In this document: piece after piece, positions 28,764 to 40,840 of the stretch
Numbering within the stretch: position 1 is the first letter of the stretch
Layout of the letters: each line of letters opens with the position of its first letter
DNA from: an uncultured Planctomycetota bacterium
GTDB taxonomy: Bacteria > Planctomycetota > Planctomycetia > Isosphaerales > Isosphaeraceae
Reading direction: 5' to 3'
DNA length: 64,000 bases
Assembly (NCBI GenBank): GCA_963845755.1
Contig: CAWJTV010000006.1
Coordinates: 1-64,000, forward strand
The notes under the pieces: generated by a model
The model's database searches: none
What the model was told of the DNA's origin: nothing
The model's input: only the letters and a program-made list of their open reading frames with translations
Program-made: the position numbers and the translations under genes

Positions 28764-30274
28764 ATGACCAAGGACATCCAGGTTCTCAAGCTTCGCCAGC
28801 TTCTCGGCGAGGGAATGCCGCTCTACCGTGCGGCTTGGAAGGTGGGTATGGACGCCAAGACCGCTCAAAAGTACCGAGACTCGGATCGCCTGCCCAGTGA
28901 ATCGTGGACTCCCAAGACCTGGCGGACCCGGGAGGATCCGTTCCAGGAAGTCTGGCCGGAACTCCACGATCGGCTGGTGCTCAACCCGGGGCTCCAAGCC
29001 AAGACCCTGTTTGAGGATCTTCAGCATCGCTTCCCGGGCCGGTTCCCCGACGGCCAGCTCCGGACCTTGCAACGGAAGATCAAAGCGTGGCGGGCCACCG
29101 ACGGTCCACCCAAGGAGGTTTTCTTCGATCAGATCCACACGCCCGGCGCGTTGGCGCCTCCGACTTCACTTCCCTGAACGATTTGCAGGTCACACTCGCT
29201 GGCCAATCGTTCGATCACCTGGTCTATCACTTCGTTCTGACCTACTCCAACTGGGAGACCGGCACCGTCTGTTTCTCCGAAAGTTTCGAGAGCCTCAGCC
29301 AGGGGCTCCAGAACGCCCTTTGGGAACTGGGAGGGGTTCCCCAGACTCATCGCACCGATCGGCTCACGGCCGCGGTCAACAACCTCGGCGATCGGGACTT
29401 GTTCCAGCAACGATACCGCGCCTTGATGGCCCACTATGGCATGGCACCTCAAGCCATCCAGGCTGGTAAGGCCAACCAGAACGGAGACGCCGAACAGAGT
29501 CATAACCGGTTCAAACAAGCGATGGATCAGGCCCTGATGTTGCGCAGCGGCCGCGATTTCGCCGACCGAGCAGCCTACGAGCTGTTCCTTCGCCAGGTCT
29601 TCGCTCAGCGCAACAGCGGACGGATCCCGCGGTTCACCGAGGAACGACTGTTGCTGAAGGACCTCCCCTCGCGGCGGGTGGACGCCTGGCACCGGCGCCG
29701 GGTGCGGGTCACCCAGGGGAGTACGATCCGGGTTGGCTCCAACACCTACTCGGTGCCGAGCCGACTCATCGGTGAACAGGTCGATGTCCATGTGATGGCG
29801 GAATGCCTGGAGGTGTGGCACGGCGCGGTGCTGATTGAAAAGGTCCCTCGGCAGCGCGGCCACAACAAACACGTGATTAACTATCGGCACGTGATCGACT
29901 GGTTGGTGCGCAAGCCGGGGGCGTTCGCGGCCTATCGGCACCGGGACGCGATGTTCCCAACCGGCCGGTTTCGCCGAGCCTACGACGTCTTGCTGGCACA
30001 AAGCCCGGCCCGCGCCACCAAGGATTATCTCCGGATCCTGGAGTTGGCGGCGAAGGAGTCGGAAGTCGGGGTTGACGCCGTCCTGGGCCGGCTCTTGGAC
30101 GGGAACATGCCGATCACCCCGACCGTCGTCACGGAGCACCTGGGTCACGACCTGGGCCTGCCTCGCGCGATGGAGGTGGTCGTCACGACGGTGGATTTGT
30201 CGATGTACGACCTGTTACTCGAGACCAGGGAGGATATTCCATCAGTAAGCCAATCGATGTGCATGAGTCTCTGA
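28764..30274 (+). CDS. istA: IS21 transposase (frameshift near 29150)
   Basis: HTH N-terminus, 'SDFT', 'HRTDRLTAAV', 'NGDAEQSH', 'NTYSVPSRLIG'. Confidence 0.9.
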
Positions 30275-31035
30275 CGGACTGCCTTCGCGAGCTCCACCTG
30301 CCGACGATCCGGCAGGCGTACGAATCGGCGGCGGCACGAGCCCGTCAGGAGTTGACCAGTTACGAACGTTACCTCCTGGATCTGGCGGAGCGCGAGTGCG
30401 AGTCGCGGCGTTCCCACCGGGTCGAGCGGTTGTTGCGAGAATCGAGGCTGTTCATGGAAAAGAACCTGTCAAGCCTGGACCTGAAGCGACTGCCGTCCAA
30501 GGCGGCGCAGCAGGTCAGAACTCTGCTCGAAGGCGATTTTGTTGGACGAAATGACAATGTGCTCATATTCGGGAATCCCGGCAGTGGCAAGAGCCACGTG
30601 GCGTGCGCGATCGGGCAGGAACTGATCCGCTCGGGGCGGAAGGTGATGTTCGCGACGTGCGCCTTGATGGTTCAAGATCTGTTGGCCGCGAAGCGCGACC
30701 TGAAGCTGCGCGGTTTTCTCAAGAAGATTTCCCGATATGAGGTGCTGATCCTTGACGATATTGGATACGTACAATACAGCCGGGACGAGATGGAGGTGCT
30801 CTTCAACCTGCTGGCGGAACGGTACGAGCGCGGGAGCGTGATGCTGACGAGCAACCTGCCGTTTTCGGGATGGGAGGCGATCTTCAAGGATCCGATGACG
30901 ACCGCCGCCGCCATCGACCGGCTGGTGCACCATAGCGTGATCGTGGAGTTGAACGTTCCGAGCTACCGAGCCGAGCAGGCCAAGAAGTCGCGTCAAAAGC
31001 CGGTGGAACCGACAGACGCACGAGAGGAGGGATGA
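30259..31035 (+). CDS. istB: IS21 helper ATPase
   Basis: GNPGSGKSH, LILDDIGY, TSN, AAIDRLVHH. Confidence 0.95.
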   Translation: MHESLTDCLRELHLPTIRQAYESAAARARQELTSYERYLLDLAERECESRRSHRVERLLRESRLFMEKNLSSLDLKRLPSKAAQQVRTLLEGDFVGRNDNVLIFGNPGSGKSHVACAIGQELIRSGRKVMFATCALMVQDLLAAKRDLKLRGFLKKISRYEVLILDDIGYVQYSRDEMEVLFNLLAERYERGSVMLTSNLPFSGWEAIFKDPMTTAAAIDRLVHHSVIVELNVPSYRAEQAKKSRQKPVEPTDAREEG

Positions 31036-31295
31036 ACGAGCGCAGGAATGGTTGATCCCAGAGGCGAGAGGGATGGTCAATTGGCCAGAATCCCAGGGGC
31101 TTGTACACTATGGCCGAGTAGGGAATTCTAATTGTCGTTGACAGGGAAATCTAATTGTCGCTAATCAGGCGGGATCGCCTAAAGGGGGAGACCCCCATGG
31201 CGACGGAGCCCCCGTAGTAGTCCGAGACCGGGAAAGCCGGCCACATGGCGAAGGGGGGCAGGTGAGACGGATGGGAGCCTGTGGAGACACGTGAG

Positions 31296-31936
31296 ATGCG
31301 TACCATCGACACAGTGCTGGCCATCCACGGAGATCGAGGGTTCCGAGGTGTTCCTCTGGAACGAGTCTACAAACACCTGTTCGACCCCGAACTCATGCTC
31401 CGAGCCTACGGTAAGATCTACCGGAACGCCGGGGCCATGACCAAGGGCGCCACACCTGAAACAGTGGATGGTATGTGTCTCCAGAAGATCCAGAACATCA
31501 TCGGACTGCTTCGGCGGAACCAATATGTCTGGACGCCCGTTCGCCGAACGGAGATTCCCAAGGCAAACGGAAAGAGACGCCCGCTCGGCATTACTGCGTG
31601 GAGCGACAAACTCCTCCAGGAAGCCCTGCGAACACTCCTGGAACCATACTACGAACGGCGGTTCAGTTCTCACTCCCATGGCTTCCGGCCCGAACAGGGA
31701 TGCCACACGGCTCTCCGCGAAATCCAGAGGACGTGGAAGGGAACGACCTGGTTCATCGAAGGTGACATCAAAGGTTGTTTTGACAATATTGATCATGAAA
31801 TCATGATGTCTATCGTCCAACGAGATATCCACGACGACCGGCTCGTCCAACTGATCCGTGGTCTGCTCAAAGCAGGATATATGGAGGACTGGCGATATAA
31901 TGAGACGCTCAGCGGTACACCGCAGGGCGGTATCAC
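31296..31936 (+). pseudogene. ltrA: Group II intron reverse transcriptase 1, domains 0-4 only
   Basis: 'IPKANGKRRPLGI', 'SHGFRP', 'FIEGDIKGCFDNIDH', ends at 'GTPQGGI'; no YADD. Confidence 0.95.
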
Positions 31937-33953
31937 CACGCCCCCAACAATGTTGCAAAACTGTCCCTGATCCCCGACTCTGTCATTTCCCGATCGCGGC
32001 TCCGACCGAAGTATGGGCAAGGATGGCAGCCCGGGCTCGATCCCCGTCCAAGGCAGGCTGACAGCCGCGGTCTTGGAGAGGATGAGTCAACATGATTACA
32101 TCTCAACGGAGGTCAGCCCTGAGCCCTCCCGTCACCCGCCATTTCGAGTTCACCCGGTTTCAGGATGAGGCGATCGCGCTGGCATACCAGGCCTTGATCC
32201 CGGTCGTTTCTCGCCACCGGGAACGGTCGCGATCGCGATCTCACGACAACGAGCAGGCCACCACAACGATGCAGGGACTCCGATCAAAGGCCAGAGGAGC
32301 TTGACCCGTCATGCTCAATTGCGATCTCTGTGTGGGGACCTATGGCCGGGTCTCCGGGGACCAACAGTCCAAGGAGGACACGATCGCCAGCCAGCTTGAG
32401 GCGATCAGGCAGCGCGTCGCGAGCGACGGCTTGGTATGCTCCCCCGAGCTGTGCTTCGTGGACGATGGCTACACCGGGGATACCCTGGTCCACCCGGGCC
32501 TCGAACGACTTCGGGACCAGGCCGCTGCTGGGACCATCGATCGCCTCTACATTCTCGATCCCGATCGACTTTCACGCAAATATGCCTATCAGGTTTTGAT
32601 ACTCGAGGAACTGGCCCGGTGCGGCGTTGAGGTCGTCTTCCTGCACTCCCCTGGGCCACGGACCCGAAGAGAACCTGCTTGTGCAGGTCCAGGGCATGAT
32701 CGCCGAATACGAGCGTGCCAAGATCATGGAGCGGTGTCGCCGAGGCAAGCAGTACGCCGCCCGCCACGGCTCGGTCAACGTGCTCAGCGGCGCGCCGTAT
32801 GGCTACCGCTACATCGGCAAGCATGAGGGCGGCGGCGCGGCGCGTTATCAGGTCGTGGCCGACAAGGCGCGGATCGTGCGGAAGATCTTCGGGTGGGTCG
32901 GCCAGGAACGATGCTCGATCGGTGAGGTTTGCCGACGTCTGCAACGCGACGGCGTCCCCACGCGGACGGGCAAATCGGCCTGGGACCGCTCGGTGATCTG
33001 GTCGTATCTCAGGAACCCTGCCTACAAGGGGACGGCCGGCTTCGGCAAGACGCCGCGCGGCGCCCTCAAGCCGAAGCGGCTGCGAGCGCAACGCGGCCGT
33101 CCTGAGCAGCCCCGGCGTCCTGTCTCTCGGGTCGATACATCCGCGCAAGAACAAATCTTCATCGATGTCCCCGGTTTGGTGAGCGAGGAACTCTTCGGGA
33201 CGGTTCAAGCTCAACTCGAGGAGAACCGGCAACGCCGGCGCGAACGGCTCCGTGGCGACCGCTATCTCCTCCAGGGGTTAGTTGTCTGCAAACGGTGCGG
33301 CTACGGCTGCTACGGCAAGCCGGTGAGCCGGGCCTCGGCCAAGGGGAAGGTCCCCTACGCCTACTACCGCTGCACCGGCTCCGACGCCTATCGTTTCGGT
33401 GGCCAGCGACTGTGTTGGAACAAGCAGGTCCGCACGGATGTCTTGGACGCCGCCGTCTGGGAAGATGTGCGTCATCTCTTGTCCGAGCCCGAACGGGTTC
33501 GAGTGGAGTACGAACGGCGGCGGCACGGGCCGGAGACAGGCCCAGACCGCGAGGTGAAGCATCTCAACAAATTGATTGCGAATCTAAAAAAGATGATCGC
33601 TCGATTGATCGATGCCTACGGCGAGGGATTACTTAACAAGTCGGAGTTCGAGCCGAGGATCTTGGCAGCGCGCGAGCGCCTGGCCAAACTAGAGGATGAG
33701 TGTCGGCAGCAGATTGACGAGGCCAACCAGGAAGCCGAACTGCGGCTGGTGATCGGCCAGTTGGAGGAGTTCGCGAGACGCGTTTCCCAGGAGTTGCACG
33801 AGCCGGACTGGGCCACGCGACGGGCGATCGTTCGGGCTTTGGTGAAGCAGGTCGAGATCGACGAGCAGGAGGTCCGCATCGTGTATCGGATCAGTCCGTC
33901 CCCTTTTGAGGGAGGCCCCCAACAGGGTTCTTTGCAACATTGTTGGGGGCGTG
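31937..33953 (+). mobile_element. LSR element A (2017 bp): small ORF plus large serine recombinase
   Basis: Perfect 23-bp inverted ends CACGCCCCCAACAATGTTGCAAA (31937-31959) and TTTGCAACATTGTTGGGGGCGTG (33931-33953). Confidence 0.85.
32092..32304 (+). CDS. Small protein upstream of the recombinase
   Basis: 70 aa 'RHFEFTRFQDEAIALAYQALIP'; GAGGA RBS; AGGAG near its end serves the recombinase. Confidence 0.6.
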   Translation: MITSQRRSALSPPVTRHFEFTRFQDEAIALAYQALIPVVSRHRERSRSRSHDNEQATTTMQGLRSKARGA

Positions 33954-34204
33954 ATCGGCGAGCCCTGGGGGCTCCCTCTCCCCTCGTCCTTGTTCCGGGT
34001 GGTCCGATGACGATGGCCCCGCGCGTCGGTCTCTTCCACCGGTGCCTCCAGCCACATCTTGATCAGCTTCAGGACGAAGCGGTCGCTGATGCGCCGGGAC
34101 AGCGATTTCATCAACTCGGCATGGGGTATCGCGTCGAACGAAACCCTACCTTGATACCTCATTCAACAAGCCACTCGCGTCCACGCCCGAGGAGATCGAG
34201 GTAA
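32311..34204 (+). CDS. Large serine recombinase A (frameshift near 32650; reads through the right att site)
   Basis: 'YGRVS' catalytic Ser, 'DPDRLSR', 'APYGY', 'LRNPAYKG', Zn-ribbon CKRC..C..C, coiled coil. Residues after 33953 come from antisense RT sequence. Confidence 0.9.
33954..34138 (-). pseudogene. ltrA: Group II intron RT 2, middle piece (domain 3 to 4)
   Basis: 'FDAIPHAELMKSLSRRISDRFVLKLIKMWLEAPV...GSPQGSPI'. Confidence 0.9.
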
Positions 34205-34476
34205 CCGACCCGACTCATCCCCTCTTCGGTCGCCACTTCCCCGTCCTCTCGGTCTGCCGGCCACCCCACGGCACCCCGTTCGTGCTCGTGGCCTATCGCG
34301 ACGCGATGCGGCTGCGCATCCCACTGTCTTCGACCAGCCTGGCACCGAGCCCGATCCACCCTCCTCGGACAAGATGGACCGCGGAAGCCATCCAGGAACT
34401 TCTTTCCTTGGTCACGGAGGGTGACACGTCATGCCCCAAGCCCAAGACGTCTGGTCAGTGCTCCCGTCAGCCCTGA
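34139..34476 (+). CDS. DUF5372/Y4bD-like small protein; lacks its start codon in the integrated state
   Basis: 'EEIEVTDPTHPLFGRHFPVLSV...'. No ATG/GTG/TTG between the in-frame TGA at 34087 and 34282. Confidence 0.6.
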
Positions 34477-34664
34477 GACAGCAGGTGATCGACGACATCA
34501 CGGCCATCTACGCGGAGGTTATCCATGAGCATTTCCGAACACATTACCCCGTTCCATCTCGGCCGCAAGGCCCTGATCTATGTCCGCCAGTCCAACCCAC
34601 ATCAGGTCCTCACCCACCAGGAGAGCCGTCGTCTTCAGTACGCCCTCCAGCAGCGGGCTCGTGA
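34431..34664 (+). CDS. Small hypothetical protein overlapping the recombinase start
   Basis: GGAGG RBS; 'VWSVLPSALRQQVIDDITAIYAEVIHEH'. Confidence 0.4.
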   Translation: MPQAQDVWSVLPSALRQQVIDDITAIYAEVIHEHFRTHYPVPSRPQGPDLCPPVQPTSGPHPPGEPSSSVRPPAAGS

Positions 34665-36571
34665 GTGTGGCTGGGCGGCCCGAGGACATCGAGATCATCG
34701 ACGCCGACCTCGGCCAGACGGCCAGCACCACTCAAGGCCGGCAGGGATTCCAGGAGATCGTCACTCGGGTCACCCTCGACCAGGTCGGCATCATCTTCTC
34801 TTATGATGTCACCCGACTGTCACGCAACTGCACCGAATGGTACCCAGTCCTCGACCTCTGTGGATTCCGCCGTTGCCTCATCGGCGACCGAGACGGGATC
34901 TACGACCCCGCTACAATCAACGGTCGCCTCTTGCTCGGGCTGAAGGGCCAGATCTCCGAGCTGGAGCTTCATACGATCAAGGCTCGCTTGACGGCCGGCC
35001 TGCTCAACAAGGCACAGCGCGGCGAGCTGGCCCTGTCCCTCCCCGTGGGACTAACACGCGACCCACTGGGCCGCGTCGTGAAGCGACCGGATCGCGAAGT
35101 CCAGGACCGCCTCGACCTCGTCTTCGCCACCTTTCTCCGCATCCGCACCCTCAGTGGGGTCGTCCGTGCATTTCGAGATGAGGACTTGTTGCTACCTCGA
35201 CATGACGACTTCGGCGAAGTCGTCTGGCGCCGCCCAACCGTCCCCTCCGTCCGCTCCATCCTGAAGAACCCGGCGTACGCCGGGTCATTCGTCTACGGCC
35301 GCACCCGGACCGTGAGAGACGGCCCGGGCCGTCGGCCGGTCCAGAAGCCGTTGCCGATGTCCGAGTGGCGAATCCATATCCGGGATATCTATCCCCCCTA
35401 CATCGATTGGGCCACTTATGAGAAGATCCAGGGCATGATCCGCGACAACCACAGCGAATACGATCGGAACCAGACCCGGGGTGTCCCCCGGCCGGGGAAG
35501 GCCCTGCTCCACGGGCTCGTCGCCTGCGGCGAGTGCGGCCACAAGCTGACAGTGCAGTACAAGTTCAAGACGCAATATATTTGCAACTCGATGTGGAAAC
35601 AGCACCGCGCTCCGGTCTGCCAGCGGCTCCCTGCGGACCCGATCGATGACCACGTCGTCCGCCGCTTCTTCGAGGCGTTAGCCCCCGCGGAGTTGGACGT
35701 CTACGACCGGGTCCGGGCCTCGCTCTCGGAAGAACAAGAGCAGATCGGGCGGGCGCGACGGCAGCAACTCGATCGGCTCCGCTACCAGGCTCGACTCGCC
35801 GAGCATCAGTACCAAAAGGCCGACCCCGACAACCGCCTCGTGGCCGCCGAGCTGGAGCGCCGATGGGAGGTGGCTCTGCGGGAGTTGAAAGAGGCCGAAG
35901 AGGCATGGGAACGCGAGCAACACGAACAAGCGACACTGGAGCGTCTCGACCCCGAGACACGGCGGGCACTTACCGAAGCCGGGGAACGAATCCCGGAATG
36001 GTGGCGGGCCGACCGTTTCTCGCAGGAACAGAAGAAGGCGCTACTCCGGAGCCTGATCGACAAGGTCGTCGTCCAACGTACGGCGCCGGACATCGTGCGC
36101 TGCCGGGTTGTCTGGAAGGGAGGTGAGACGACGGACGCCGACCTCGCGGTCACAGTCGGTGCCTGGTCACGCCTGTCAGGCGGCCAAGTGATGGAGCAGA
36201 CGATCCTGGAACTGGCCCGGCAAGGAAAGACCGACCAGGAGATCGCCCGGAGATTGACCGAGGAAGGCCACCGTTCGCCACGGCATGCAATCGTCCTGCC
36301 GAGTACGGTCCAGGCCATCCGTCTGCACCATCGCCTGTACCGCGACCGGAGACGAGCACATCCGCGGCGGATCGCGGGGTTCCTGACCGTGCCGCAACTC
36401 GCCTCGAAGTTGAAGCTTCCCCGAAGCTGGATCTACGACCGCATCCACAATTGCAAGATTCAAGTTGATCTCGATGCCACATGGAAGCTCTATCTGTTCC
36501 CCGACAACCCTGAGACTCTCACCCGGTTTCGGCAACTCGTGGCTGGGAAGCTCAACACCTTACGTTTTTAG
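34525..36571 (+). CDS. Large serine recombinase B (frameshift near 34680)
   Basis: 'ALIYVRQS', 'DVTRLSRN', 'LLLGLKGQISELE', 'LKNPAYAG', CGECG..C..C, C-terminal HTH-like regions. Confidence 0.9.
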
Positions 36572-36591
36572 GAGGGCATCAAGATGCCGTC

Positions 36592-37109
36592 TCGAAGTAA
36601 CCGGAAAGATCGCCGTCGACCACCTCGGTATGCCCGTTCCGGACCAGCCGTTCGACTTGCCTCACGGCGTCGAGGGCGCTCCGTCCTGGGCGATACCCGT
36701 ATTGCTCCGGCTCCAGGTCGGCCTCGAAGATCGGCTCCAAGACCAGCACCGCGGCCATCTGCGCTACGCGGTCCTTGATGCAGGGAATCCCCAGCGGCCT
36801 TTGCTTGCCATCCGGTTTAGGGATGTACACGCGTCGGATCGGCTGGGGTGAGTACGTCCGCTTCTTGAGGTCGTCCGCCAATTCGTCCAGCCATCGGTCC
36901 AGTCCGTATGCTTCGATGTCGTCGAACGTCTGGCCATCGACCCCGGCGGCGCCACCGTTGGCACGGCAGCGGGCGTAGGCTTCCTCCAGGACGTCGCGGC
37001 GATAGACCTTGTCATACAGCGCATAGAACCGATAGTCAGGCGACCCCTTCGCTTTGGTGTGCAACGCCGTCTGGAGTTTCTGAACCGTCGGTGGAGGTGC
37101 TAGGCTCAT
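36592..37109 (-). pseudogene. ltrA: Group II intron RT 2, N-terminal piece
   Basis: 'GAAGVDG', 'YIPKPDGKQRPLGIPCIKDRVAQ', 'YGYRPGRS', 'VDGDLSGYF'. Confidence 0.95.
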
Positions 37110-37770
37110 TGCCAATCTCCTGGCTCTCATGCCCCTTGTGACGCTGACCTTGAACTGAGGCCCCTTTGCTCCGCCGGCGTTACCCGGCTTCCTCGCTCAT
37201 ACGGGCCTCTCCGCCACCTCGGGCGGCCCGACCTGGCCCTCGCGGGTTGTCGGTTGAGGGTCACGCGCCCTCACCGCCGAGGCTTCCCGTGTTGCGTCGG
37301 ATCTCCTCTGCAGGCATGCCACCGCCAATACCCCGGTGGAACCCTGGGAGCGTGTCGCGTCGTGAGGGGTAACCCCCTCTGTCTCCCAGGACGGCGGCCT
37401 TCCCCGTATAGCAACCGGGTCGGCTTCCACATCGGGTTGTTTCGGGGCTTGCACGGCGTTCACTGTCGTTGCGGCCTGCCTGCTCGCCGAACCGCCACAG
37501 CGGCCCGTTGTCTCGAAGGCTTCGACGGCTTTGTCACCTCCGCCGCCGCTCCGATCGCTACCGGATGGAGCGACCAGTTTTCCGGGCGGGATTCGCACCC
37601 GCTGAAGATCCGAGCCTTTTCACGGCGCACTGCTATCGGAACCCCAGCCCGCGTTCGGTGAGTTGGTCCAACAAGGTATCCAGGAGGAGCTGTCCGGCTT
37701 GGCCATTGACCAGGCGAGCGCGGAACTCGCTGAGCACGGTGTGGTTGAACCCAGGATCGTCCAGTTCTAG

Positions 37771-39236
37771 TACTACTCCGTTAAAATTTCCATTTGTTGG
37801 GTGTAGAGATGAGCACAAGGGTGGCAATACGGACAATCCGGTCGCGCCCGTGGGCTCAGCAACCGCTGCAAGGCGCGACGGATCGCCGGCAAGGTGATCC
37901 GTCGCGCCTTATCCCCTTTTTTTCTCGGCACGGCCGGGTGCTCTTTCTCTCGAAGTTGTTCCAGGACCAGGAAACCGAACGCCAACATCACCAGGCAGAC
38001 ATGGTGATGGAAGCCGCGCCACGAACGGCCCTCGAAATGATCCAGACCCAACTCCTCCTTCATCTGTTGGTAGCCTTGCTCGACCGGCCATCGGCTCTTC
38101 CACAATCGGACCGCCCGCAGCCGCGGGGTGTCGGCCGGCAGGTTGCTGAAGGCGTACTTCAACGTGCCGTCGGCCTGCCGCTCGATCAACAGCCAAATCG
38201 GCTCGGCCCCGGCACAGTCGCCCGTGGCCCAGCCGCCGCCGGGCCAGACCCGCAACCAGGCGAAGTGGCCCGACAGCTTCCCTTTGGTCCCCTCGCGCCA
38301 GGTCACCTTGTGCAGGGTCGTCCGTGCCGCCAGGTCCTTCAGGCTCACGGGCCGGGGGGTACCCTCGGCCAACCGGGGCCGCCGCCGCGGCCGTCCGCCC
38401 GTCCCCTCAGGCCGCGCCGCTGGCCCGGGTGGCTCCCACTGAGGCTCGGCGGTGAAGACGACCATCTCGTCGGTGACACCCACGATGTACGCCAGCCCAC
38501 GAGCGGCCAACCCCTTGCGAAAGTCCTCCGAGACCCCGTAACCGGCGTCGGCCACGGCGAGCCACCCCGGCAGCCCTTCGCCGCGCACCATGTCCAGCAA
38601 TCCCAAGGCGATCTCGCCTTTGGTCTGGGCTCGACGGACGGCCTCCGGAACACCCGCCGCGCCCAGTCGCTTCGGATCCTGGATCCAGGAGTCGGGCAAG
38701 AACAGCCGCATTGCCAACGGATAATGGCCCTTGGGGCTAACGTAGTGGACCGAGGGGGCCACCTGGCAATTGGCCTTCTTGCCCAAGGCCCCGCAATATT
38801 GCCTCTGGACACCGACGGAGTGCTTCCCCTGCTTGGGGAAACCCGTGTCGTCGAAGACGAAGATCCCTTGGGGGCTGGCGAAGGTCTGGGCCAGGTGCTT
38901 TCGATAGTCGCGTGCGAGCTCCTGGTCGTCCCAGGGGCTCTGGTTGACGAACTGCTGGAGGGCCTGCTCCTTGTCCTTGACGTCCAGGTCCGGCGGGAGC
39001 GTGACGCGACCGGAGAGGGGCTCGATGCTCTTGCGTTCGCCGTCCTGGAGCAGCCCTTGGAGAGAGACCCCGCTCCAGGCGGCCTGCGCCTTGTGGGAGA
39101 AGCCATCGCGGAACACGTCCGCATAATCCCGAAGTCGCTCGAGGACTTCGGGCGTCAGTTCGGGGGTGTAAGTCTTGCTCATAATGATCATACGAACAAA
39201 GGCCCCGAGAAGTTCGTAGGATCTAACGGAGTAGTA
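37771..39236 (-). mobile_element. IS701-family element; transposase 39182-37773 intact
   Basis: 13-bp IR TACTACTCCGTTA, CTAG duplication; 'FDDTGFPKQGKHSVGVQRQYCG', 'ADAGYG', 'RWPVEQGYQQMKEELGLDHFEGRSW'. Confidence 0.95.
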
Positions 39237-39237
39237 C

Positions 39238-40250
39238 TAGAGTCGCCTTACGTTTGCATTGCATACGCCGCACGGTGTCCGAACCAGCCCGCGATATCCT
39301 CGGGGAGTCACGTCATGCAAGGCCGAGACGAACGCCGCATAGACCGCCTCCTTCGTCCGCGCCGCCATCGATCGCATCGCACCTTTAATCTTCGAGGCCA
39401 TCTCCTCATAGGGCGTCAGGTCCGGACTCCACGGCGGCAACGGCACCAAGTCGGCCCCGGCCCCCGCGACAGCCTCGGCCGCCTCCTCCGACTGGTGCGA
39501 CGACAGGTTGTCCCAGATGACCACGTCGCCGGGCTTCAACTCCGGGACCAGGACATCCTCCACGTAGTTCTCGAACATGGCCTGATTGGTGGCGCCGGGA
39601 AGGCCAACGCCGCCGTCACCCCGGAGAGGCGAACCCCGCAGGTGAGCGTGATCGAATCCCAGTGGCCGGGGGTATCGGTGTAGACGCGCTGGCCCACCGG
39701 GGCACGGCCGTAGGTCCTCGTCATGGACGTGTTGGCCCCGCATTCGTCCACGAAAACCAGCCGGTGCGGGTCGATGCCGGAGAGGGCCTCACAGAAATCC
39801 CGCCGTTTCTCCTGGACCTCCGGGCGATCCTGCTCGTTGCGCGCGGGACCTTCTTCTTGCGCGGCAACCCCAGCTTGTCCAGGGCGCGACAGATGGCGGC
39901 GGTGCTGCAAGCGACGCCGAGGCGCTTTTGCAACTCTTCGAGGGTGGCGTCGGGCTGCTGGCGGACCAACTCGCGGAGCCGCTCGTAATCCTCCGGTCCC
40001 AGCGCCGGCGGATGACCGCCGCGGTGGGGCTTGGGCGCGATCGAGCCGGTCCGGCGGTGGATCTGCAACAAGCGAACGACGAACGAGAGGCTGACGACGA
40101 AGCGGCGAGCGATCTGACGGATCGAGCCCTCGCCGCGCTCGACCGCGTCCAGGACGCGTTGTCGGAGATCGTGGGAATACGGGGACATGGGTCACCTCCT
40201 CACGAGAATCTCCGTTCAAATCGTATGCCATCCAACCGTTCGGCGCTCTA
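39238..40250 (-). mobile_element. IS630-family element, copy 1
   Basis: TAGAG...CTCTA ends; 'FVDECG', 'IWDNLSSH', 'LPPWSPDLTPYE'; near-identical to 56031-57043. Confidence 0.9.
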
Positions 40251-40403
40251 AGGCCAGGGCGTACTTCCAGTCGATGCGGCCGCGGACGGCATCGGCGGCC
40301 TGGCGGTCGGAGAGGCCCTCGAGGTATTGGAGGACACAGACCCAAGCCAGGCGTGCGGGTGAGGCGGCCGGCTGACCACGAGTGGGGAACAGCGCGGCGA
40401 AGC

Positions 40404-40840
40404 GGTACGTCGCCGGCTCGATCCACTGGCGGACCGGGACGGTCTTCGCCACCTGTGGGCCGAAGCGAGATGCGAAGCTCTTCCTGGCCCATCTGGAGGA
40501 CCTGCGGCATCGGCTGAGGCGCTATCGGAAGGTCCATGTGATCTGCGACTGCGCCAAGTTCCATCACATCGACGAGGTGCGGGTCTACCTTTGGGAGCAC
40601 CGCGATCGGATCGAACTGGTGATGCTGCCGGCGTACAGCCCGGACGCTAATCCGATGGAGCGGGTCTGGTGGCTGGTGCGGGAGCATGTCACGCGGAACC
40701 ATCGGTGGCACGACTCGGCGAAATTGGTGGGGATGGTCATGCGGTATCTGGAGTCGGAAGCGCCCTTCCGGCTTGAGGATGAGGAATACAAGATCCCCAG
40801 GGCCGCGTAATTACTTGCCCTCTTGCGAGGACCTATTTAG
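40404..40840 (+). pseudogene. IS630-family transposase, 3' fragment of another element
   Basis: 'VICDCAKFH', 'LPAYSPDANPMERVW'; stop at 40810. Confidence 0.8.

Follow-up and report, generated by a model that had tools for sequence, protein, structure and literature searches.

Insertion sequence-sized large serine recombinase elements that probably use conserved reverse transcriptase motifs of group II introns as attachment sites

The DNA analysed here, called the window throughout, is the first 64,000 nucleotides (forward strand) of contig CAWJTV010000006.1, referred to as C6, in the 14.27 Mb, 49-contig genome assembly GCA_963845755.1 of an uncultured planctomycete of the family Isosphaeraceae, order Isosphaerales. 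Two mobile elements in it, A and B, interrupt reverse transcriptase (RT) genes of group II intron type, RT1 and RT2. The evidence assembled below makes it very probable that A and B represent two unrelated mobile families of insertion sequence (IS) size, each with its own large serine recombinase (LSR), and that both use as attB, the attachment site in the target, the DNA encoding a conserved motif of group II intron RTs. They are parasites of another genetic parasite, an instance of hyperparasitism. The features of the region are as follows.

31281..31936, plus strand: 5' part of RT1, a reverse transcriptase gene of group II intron type (RVT_1, E 1.2e-16), ending ...GTPQGGI(T)
31937..31959, no strand: left 23-bp inverted end of element A, a P'-type half site, perfect reverse complement of 33931-33953
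31937..32095, plus strand: terminal piece of the element A recombinase gene, about 53 codons and a stop, in frame only after right-to-left end joining
32092..32304, plus strand: small open reading frame (ORF) of element A, 70 residues, its ATG overlapping the stop of the terminal piece (ATGA)
32311..33953, plus strand: main ORF of the element A LSR (Resolvase, Recombinase and Zn_ribbon_recom domains), frameshifted near 32642 and lacking a stop codon within A
33931..33953, no strand: inverted end (23 bp) on the right of element A, a P-type half site; the core AT comes next, at 33954-33955
33954..34138, minus strand: RT2 middle fragment lying between elements B and A, FDAIPH... to ...GSPQGSPI
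34139..36594, plus strand: element B, 2456 bp between core AA copies at 34137-34138 and 36595-36596, with imperfect inverted ends
34138..34476, plus strand: DUF5372-like small ORF of element B, body only (112 codons and a stop), without a start codon of its own here
34525..36571, plus strand: LSR of element B, identified by Pfam domains, with a 1-base frameshift near 34677
36570..36594, plus strand: beginning of the element B small ORF, located at B's right end, with ribosome-binding site (AGGAGG), ATG (36584) and three codons
36597..37130, minus strand: 5' fragment of RT2, ending ...VDGDLSGY(F) (RVT_1, E 2.2e-9)
37464..37604, minus strand: upstream of RT2, RNA domains D1-D4 of a group II intron (Rfam group-II-D1D4-4, 100.9 bits, E 5.9e-22)

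Element A, 2017 bp long (31937-33953) and bounded by perfect 23-bp inverted repeats, adjoins on its left the RT1 codons ...CAG GGC GGT ATC AC, the last two bases of which (AC, 31935-31936) occupy the crossover position, and on its right, after 33953, AT and the reverse complement of ...CAG GGC TCG CCG, belonging to RT2 on the minus strand. Re-reading of the sequence places both junctions in the PQG..SP register, as the initial annotation of this region had reported; we take this motif to be RT motif B (RT4) in the usual naming, and the D....FD motif entered by element B to be motif A (RT3). RT1 and RT2-type proteins are 33% identical over 153 residues. RT1 itself matches RVT_1 only, and shares 44% identity with the RT from an intact family of introns that has maturase and HNH domains.

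This genome contains six copies of A at 95-100% identity, all with the same ends, and all six interrupt one and the same PQG..SP codon, in RT genes of four lineages, with flanks that encode G(T/S)PQG.. on one side, ..SP(A/L)LAN on the other, or both. The host lineages, namely RT1, the RT2 type and two more with intact copies elsewhere in the genome, are only about 30-44% identical as proteins. Intact lineages of the target (three) are true group II introns encoding RVT_1 together with GIIM or Intron_maturas2 and with HNH, and the intron copies have Rfam matches to D1-D4 and to domain V/VI (D5-6). Eight sites remain empty, in two multi-copy lineages, and where flanks are 99-100% identical, occupied sites exceed empty ones by precisely the element and 2 bp. 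In another, third lineage of introns the critical codon is GCC, and all 6 copies are free of the element; the sole RT1 copy and both copies of the RT2 type are occupied. The orientation of A relative to the RT gene differs even within one lineage (contigs C3 and C47).

Relatives of A repeat this pattern well beyond the genome in hand. The C-terminal 430 residues of its recombinase have matches at E <=1e-30 in 32 of 121 genomes of the order, representing 19 of 53 genera and often present in multiple copies, and a scan of one genome per species recovered at least 581 relatives. Junctions were compiled from the six own copies and 129 read loci (L018-L126, L157-L176), yielding 83 elements with both ends and 58 distinct junction pairs; RT sequence was recognised by regular expression on the translated flanks, and for B by inspection of translations by eye. 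Two of the 58 pairs were too short to read, and 42 of the remaining 56 have an RT at one or both junctions. These comprise 31 simple insertions, with the 5' part of an RT on one side and the 3' part on the other, four pairs with RT 5' parts on both sides, two with 3' parts on both sides, and five with an RT on one side only, in three of which the other side is, by eye, an RT with a 1-base indel or an RT behind a duplicated end. RT-flanked relatives with recombinases 45-58% identical to that of A occur in Chloroflexota, Acidobacteriota, Phycisphaerae and several Pseudomonadota, and the target codon is common to four phyla (Planctomycetota, Chloroflexota, Acidobacteriota, Pseudomonadota). One genome with relatives contains A copies 99.95% identical to each other, which indicates recent activity.

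An A-type copy, with a recombinase 50% identical to that of A, also interrupts this motif in an RT gene on the TOL plasmid pWW53 of Pseudomonas putida. On both pWW53 (L177, NC_008275.1, 75413-83672) and pDK1 (NC_014124.1) the A-type element occupies an RT gene between a benA-type gene and xylS, and is adjoined by another recombinase gene pair. At the position of the element the pWW53 gene table lists only two fragments, both named 'recombinase family protein'. Interrupted RT 'pseudogenes' beside genes with that name, those of pWW53 included, become readable as an element within an element.

The 31 simple insertions define an attB consensus encoding G-T-P-Q-G-G-x-(I/V/L)-S-P-L-L-A-N, with exchange at bases 1 and 2 of the I/V/L codon that immediately precedes SP. 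The second base of the crossover is T in 28-29 of the 31, and the first is variable; the same dinucleotide is found at both junctions in 22 (AT in 16, CT in 5, GT in 1). We considered an off-centre TC crossover, but registers shifted by 1-2 bases fit only 6-16 of the 31 insertions, compared with 22 for the central one. The inner 9 bases of each attB half resemble the ends of A (GG.GG..TG vs GGGGGCGTG), and the GG..CC dyad formed by the G-G and S-P codons gives attB a partial symmetry. When joined, the ends of A form a 48-bp perfect palindrome consisting of the right end, AT and the left end. In serine integrases such as those of phiC31 and Bxb1 the central dinucleotide alone sets polarity. With a symmetric attP, the attachment site of the element, and a core that is usually AT, A is expected to insert in either orientation, and the 27 sense and 24 antisense insertions counted among its relatives are what a symmetric site predicts.

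Element B splits RT2 at GGT TAC TT|C GAC, so that its removal joins GGT TAC TT to C GAC GCG and restores G-Y-F-D-A. The core, AA on the plus strand (TT in RT sense), is at 34137-34138 and is repeated at 36595-36596. Insertion in the YFD motif and restoration of the frame had both been recognised in the initial annotation and hold; the right boundary given there fell a few bases short of that of the element defined here (34139-36594). Contig C22 has an RT2-like gene without interruption that aligns on both sides of B, residues 98-200 with 36890-36588 and residues 198-259 with 34138-33953 (74% identity for the latter), which identifies B as a precise insertion. We also compared the window with short-read contigs from four soil runs, which contain 0.13-0.33 of the sampled words, and a contig from run X2 shows the same RT region without B, reading GYFDSIPH (34120 joined to 36592), a natural empty site. 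Two further own copies of B, at 74% identity, match from end to end (1-2451 of 2453), and one of them splits an intron RT at ..SCF|DEI.. in an intron of which five sister copies are empty.

Among B and its relatives at or above 57% identity, 16 of 20 loci have the FD motif of an RT at one or both junctions. The 17 relatives within the order (57-83% identity, assigned by eye) have an RT motif at both junctions in nine cases, at the only readable junction in four and at one of two in one, and one more lies in other DNA; the remaining two (67-68% identity) precisely split istB of an IS21 element, the two parts matching Pfam profile positions 2-60 and 62-237. The core is AA/AA at both junctions in the three own copies and in 12 of the 13 relatives that give a joined ORF. 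Relatives of B have open recombinase frames of about 697 residues. Recombinases A and B are only distantly related to each other (26% identity over 227 residues), and yet a complete genome (NC_019892.1, locus L048) contains a B-like and an A-like element 53 codons apart in one RT of another lineage. The flanks of homologues, which the initial annotation had proposed as the check on its idea that RT motifs serve as attB, include an RT in most of the loci read for either element, and the idea is supported for A by the single codon shared by all six own copies and by the 42 RT-associated relative pairs. Each insertion, of A or of B, breaks the RT reading frame, as also anticipated, and would be expected to affect the mobility of the intron.

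Each element appears to have its attachment site inside one of its own genes. The recombinase ORF of A has no stop codon inside the element. When the ends of 25 elements were joined in silico, the frame stayed open through the right end in 22, from four phyla, and ran on for 38-79 codons in 20; a motif, L(R/C)..YG, is retained beyond the inverted repeat in 19 of the 25, indicating that this tail is conserved as protein rather than as a binding site. In B the recombinase is complete in place and it is the small ORF that is split across the ends: end joining in silico yields a 116-residue ORF in the window copy, and the ORF is split likewise in 13 of the 14 relatives whose right end could be read. 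By their sequences, integration would deprive A of the last ~53 codons of its recombinase and B of the ribosome-binding site and start codon of its small ORF. As attP cuts a gene in each element, full products are predicted only from an excised circle, and we infer that the split genes act as a switch set by the integration state.

The small ORFs qualify an earlier description of both elements as cargo-free, which is nearly right except that each has a conserved accessory ORF. That of A carries a motif resembling FEP.RL...AYE..IP in 20 of 25 elements (regular expression); it matched no Pfam or NCBIfam family, and its Atlas matches, useful as a lead only, are unnamed clusters with a score of 0.88. 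The small-ORF bodies of B, aligned for 13 relatives, share 17 invariant columns and match DUF5372 (PF17342) weakly (E <=0.1 in 10 of 13, best 0.001), all below the 25-bit gathering score; 29 of 30 Atlas neighbours are DUF5372 clusters, with a best score of 0.95.

By domain content the two predicted proteins are large serine recombinases, with a PF00239 catalytic domain (E 1e-15 for A, 1.1e-12 for B), the Y-x-R-x-S context of that domain in both translations, and PF07508 and PF13408 C-terminal to it. The element sites fit this assignment: dyad symmetry of attP is present as two perfect 23-bp arms in A and imperfect inverted ends in B, and the junctions of both share a 2-bp crossover with no longer target duplication. 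A sequence search of solved structures returned A118 integrase as the only relative, weakly (E 4e-4). The NCBIfam equivalogs for XisF, CcrA, CcrB and CcrC were rejected, the best (XisF) scoring 70.5 and 78.1 bits where 375 is the cut-off, with the Ccr models also weak. Neither recombinase matched DUF4368 in the Pfam scan.

Tn4451/Tn4453 (TnpX) and Tn5397 (TndX) have GA dinucleotides, loose target choice and cargo. We rejected assignment to a transposon of this type, given cores that are mostly AT (A) or TT/AA (B), cargo of one small ORF each, and the absence of DUF4368 from the Pfam scan; according to the text of PMC10083194 this domain is typical of the multi-targeting LSR clade, where 63% of members have it. 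The IS607 family was also rejected: in A and B the catalytic domain comes first and the proteins are ~600-680 residues long, whereas IS607 enzymes are described in PMC4058570 as small, with inverted domain order and minimal target specificity. IS607 elements resemble A and B in being IS-sized and moved by a serine recombinase, and differ from them in that the enzymes of A and B are large, in the usual domain order and highly specific.

Targeting of RT motifs, although it applies to A and B themselves, is not a property of all their relatives, a point on which the initial annotation needs correcting. Specificity depends on the clade, the targets including RT genes, istB of IS21, orf2 of IS66, a repetitive extragenic palindromic (REP)-like repeat and a dctP gene. 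A sister clade of A with six own copies (recombinases 47-58% identical, different ends) lies not in RT genes but in a REP-like double-hairpin repeat, of which at least 38 empty copies are present in the genome.

Copies in the REP-like repeat (A-like): C42:185853-187483, C11:827481-829111, C11:819763-821395, C18:9665-11299, C13:234819-236434 and C20:3530-5093

A variant of A with ends beginning GACGCC (L019, L067, L072, L077, L081, L175, L176) is found in another hairpin-rich repeat, whose left flank itself resembles an element end. On the B side, a clade 50-52% identical abuts IS66 orf2 (TnpB_IS66) at FDGL (L143 and an own copy on C9). Relatives of B are present in 427 plasmid records, mostly rhizobial; one splits a dctP gene, which implies that some clades target host genes, and one adjoins an IS66 transposase. 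The former is on a Microvirga plasmid (L184, NZ_CP016619.1, 857902-864788), where a B-type element with a recombinase 57% identical separates two TRAP transporter DctP fragments.

Own genes resembling the B recombinase at 36-39% identity were excluded from the family, being part of a 5.25-kb IS66-like transposon. That element, present in at least eight copies at 99.5-99.9% identity with long inverted ends and apparent 8-bp target duplications, encodes an IS66-type transposase and carries a large serine recombinase as a passenger.

Loci of the 5.25-kb element: C21:77202-78856, C19:34082-35736, C19:9145-10802, C22:61714-63370, C20:716279-717934 and others

These data suggest the following cycle. 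The element would excise as a circle whose joined ends form attP, and the recombinase would catalyse integration of the circle, by a 2-bp staggered exchange, into an RT-motif attB: for A at the first two bases of the I/V/L codon, for B at the TT of the F codon in ..FD... Full recombinase (A) and full small-ORF product (B) would be made only from the circle. Because the RT motifs are conserved and the introns multi-copy and dispensable, such a target would offer many harmless landing sites in many hosts.

Several observations weigh against this interpretation. Fourteen of the 56 readable A pairs are at no RT, nine of them with variant and five with canonical ends, although one of the latter (L054) sits, by eye, in a look-alike of the motif. 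The dinucleotides differ between the two junctions in 9 of the 31 simple A insertions, which canonical LSR chemistry does not predict; these could be tolerated mismatches, later mutations or exchanges between copies. One own copy of B (C26) lies in non-RT DNA, and several copies of A are chimeric (5'+5' or 3'+3'), some of them on tiny short-read contigs. The flank calls were made by regular expression or by eye rather than by profile search of every flank, and the sampled genomes are kin, so that the counts are not independent and describe a pattern, not a statistic. Neither a circle, nor within-strain empty-site polymorphism, nor recombination was observed. A scan of metagenome contigs for the inner 12 bases of each A end around any 2-base core returned a single contig, with a different palindrome, which is not an A circle. 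All six own copies of A, distinguished from each other by indels, and the B of the window are frameshifted.

The contig returned by that scan (L183, 3243 bases) carries an intact palindrome at 2256-2281, between two related tandem recombinase genes. It resembles the joined ends of A except in its outer bases, and the upstream LSR ORF reads through it.

At least some of the frameshifts probably lie in the assembly. Compared with contigs of all four short-read runs the window lacks 2 bases (GC) after 32642 in A, and the extra bases restore the frame; a 263-base contig of run X1, otherwise identical, has one base fewer at 34677 in B. Since the short-read contigs share neither frameshift, at least these two are probably assembly errors, and the assembly probably has indel errors in GC-rich runs. 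Relatives of A and B elsewhere have uninterrupted recombinase frames.

A rival account has the elements entering an intron once and then being copied passively, by retrohoming of the composite or by gene conversion between intron copies, in place of repeated integration by the recombinases. An intron that lacks a functional ORF can still move when RT is provided in trans (Ll.LtrB), and one relative genome looks consistent with such copying: it contains, at separate places on the chromosome, two composites of intron and A (4037 bp) that are 99.8% identical, and seven distinct A copies in sense as against two in antisense. Homology-driven copying, however, cannot account for A copies 95-98% identical in four RT lineages that are ~30-44% identical, and one intron family carries A in both orientations while the same codon is used in four phyla. 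Passive copying is thereby refuted as the sole cause, a role we consider improbable overall, and it may still add copies. Hardly credible is random insertion, with introns appearing as hosts only because dispensable mobile DNA survives selection. IS21 and an IS66-like element are indeed also found within RT genes of this genome, but at scattered positions, and survival bias cannot explain why six of six own copies, and 31 simple insertions elsewhere, all fall on one pair of bases with a 2-bp repeat; the precision to a single codon contradicts it. That the host keeps the elements as reversible switches to silence or restrain its group II introns would suit the broken RT gene, its restoration by precise excision, and the occupation here of both RT2-type copies and of the only RT1 copy. 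We regard this as very unlikely, as the elements are multi-copy, spread across phyla and plasmids and variable in copy number, their sister clades use as targets unrelated repeats and, indeed, a transporter gene, which is selfish behaviour, and eight permissive sites are empty.

A separate question is the A copy of the window, which the initial annotation had read as one element joining RT1 to RT2. Its flanks are both 5' halves of RT genes, facing inward, an arrangement that no single insertion gives; the copy is therefore either a chimera of two insertions or an assembly join, that is, rearranged or misassembled. Recombination between two direct copies of A, one in sense in RT1 and one in antisense in RT2, could have produced RT1, A and RT2 in this order with deletion of the DNA between; it requires copies oppositely oriented in their RT genes, and both orientations are common. 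An assembly chimera at a 2-kb repeat is, by our estimate, the less likely account, at perhaps the weight of a serious minority view. It is favoured by the inward-facing halves, by the many indel differences between copies, two of them contradicted by short-read contigs, by 5'+5' or 3'+3' copies on contigs <3 kb (L020, L021/L049), and by the lack of any short-read contig bridging 33953/33954, although the coverage gap at that point is uninformative. Against it, like arrangements occur inside long contigs (L062, L097).

Returning to the reading of A and B as LSR families that attach at RT motifs, their closest working analogues are Tn4451/Tn5397 and the gene-splitting elements of serine integrases. 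As in Tn4451/Tn4453 and Tn5397, an LSR is the sole mobility enzyme and a 2-bp crossover accompanies an excised circle (here a proposed one). The circle joint of Tn4451 creates the tnpX promoter, so that expression depends on the excised state, as proposed for A and B. Those transposons differ in spanning several kb with resistance cargo, as against 2.0-2.5 kb; A has perfect palindromic ends, and in the present elements it is a coding sequence rather than a promoter that is split and a conserved codon of another mobile element's gene that is the target. The gene splitters (A118 in comK, SPbeta in spsM, skin in sigK, the fdxN element with XisF) likewise use one intragenic site and restore the gene by precise excision. 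They are, however, tens of kb long, single-copy, in a host gene and in one orientation, whereas A and B are IS-sized, multi-copy and directed at the gene of another mobile element, A in both orientations. Phage Mx8 has its attP inside intP, which encodes a tyrosine integrase, and there, as in IS911 and IS30, integration alters what the element can express; in IS911 and IS30 the circle joint completes a promoter, and here it would complete the recombinase C-terminus (A) or supply the start codon of the accessory ORF (B).

What appears new, judged by these differences, is the combination of IS size, palindromic attP, insertion in either orientation, a coding sequence split by attP, and motifs of mobile elements as targets. 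Durrant et al. 2022 (PMC10083194), on multi-targeting and site-specific LSRs, supply the general framework, in which a cluster of LSRs is directed either at a single gene cluster or at sequences that recur at many sites. The words 'reverse transcriptase' do not occur in the main text of that paper, and in line with the initial annotation, which knew of no prior description, our literature search (including PMC10083194 with its text supplements, and PMC4853749) found no account of a serine-recombinase element inside an intron RT gene. LSR elements specialised, repeatedly and across phyla, on catalytic-core codons of group II introns would bear on the limits to intron spread. The 48-bp palindromic attP, with an attB consensus drawn from dozens of natural sites, may be of interest for recombinase engineering and for the study of dinucleotide polarity, and genes completed by the circle suggest a simple control of directionality. 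More speculatively, and with somewhat less than even confidence, we propose an old cross-phylum guild of IS-sized LSR elements living only on other mobile elements (RT, IstB, Orf2 and REP sites), in which a hitherto undescribed control, by an attP inside a gene, would give directionality without a classical directionality factor, A is blind to orientation, and some copies may ride on retrohoming.

The surroundings of A and B are rich in other mobile DNA. Directly upstream of RT1 is an IS21-family element, which is context and lies outside the finding.

29087..31167, plus strand: IS21-family element, with istA at 29087-30274, istB at 30259-31035 and right end at 31167

Its genes match Pfam rve/Mu-transpos_C_2 and IstB_IS21 (E 4.6e-63), and its right end at 31167 was placed from repeats read in the sequence, where short-read contigs also have loose ends. 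Copies like this one, and an IS66-like element with a 488-residue transposase, lie inside intron RT genes elsewhere in the genome at positions other than those used by A and B (C16:1240-2773, C24:2357-3889, C24:4443-6930, C36:46582-49014), and one RT on C24 contains three nested elements. Beyond the RT2 intron are a DDE_5 transposase gene at 37773-39191 (minus strand, E 3.8e-73) and a weak DDE_3 match at 39536-40711 (minus strand), which mark the region as a cluster of mobile elements.

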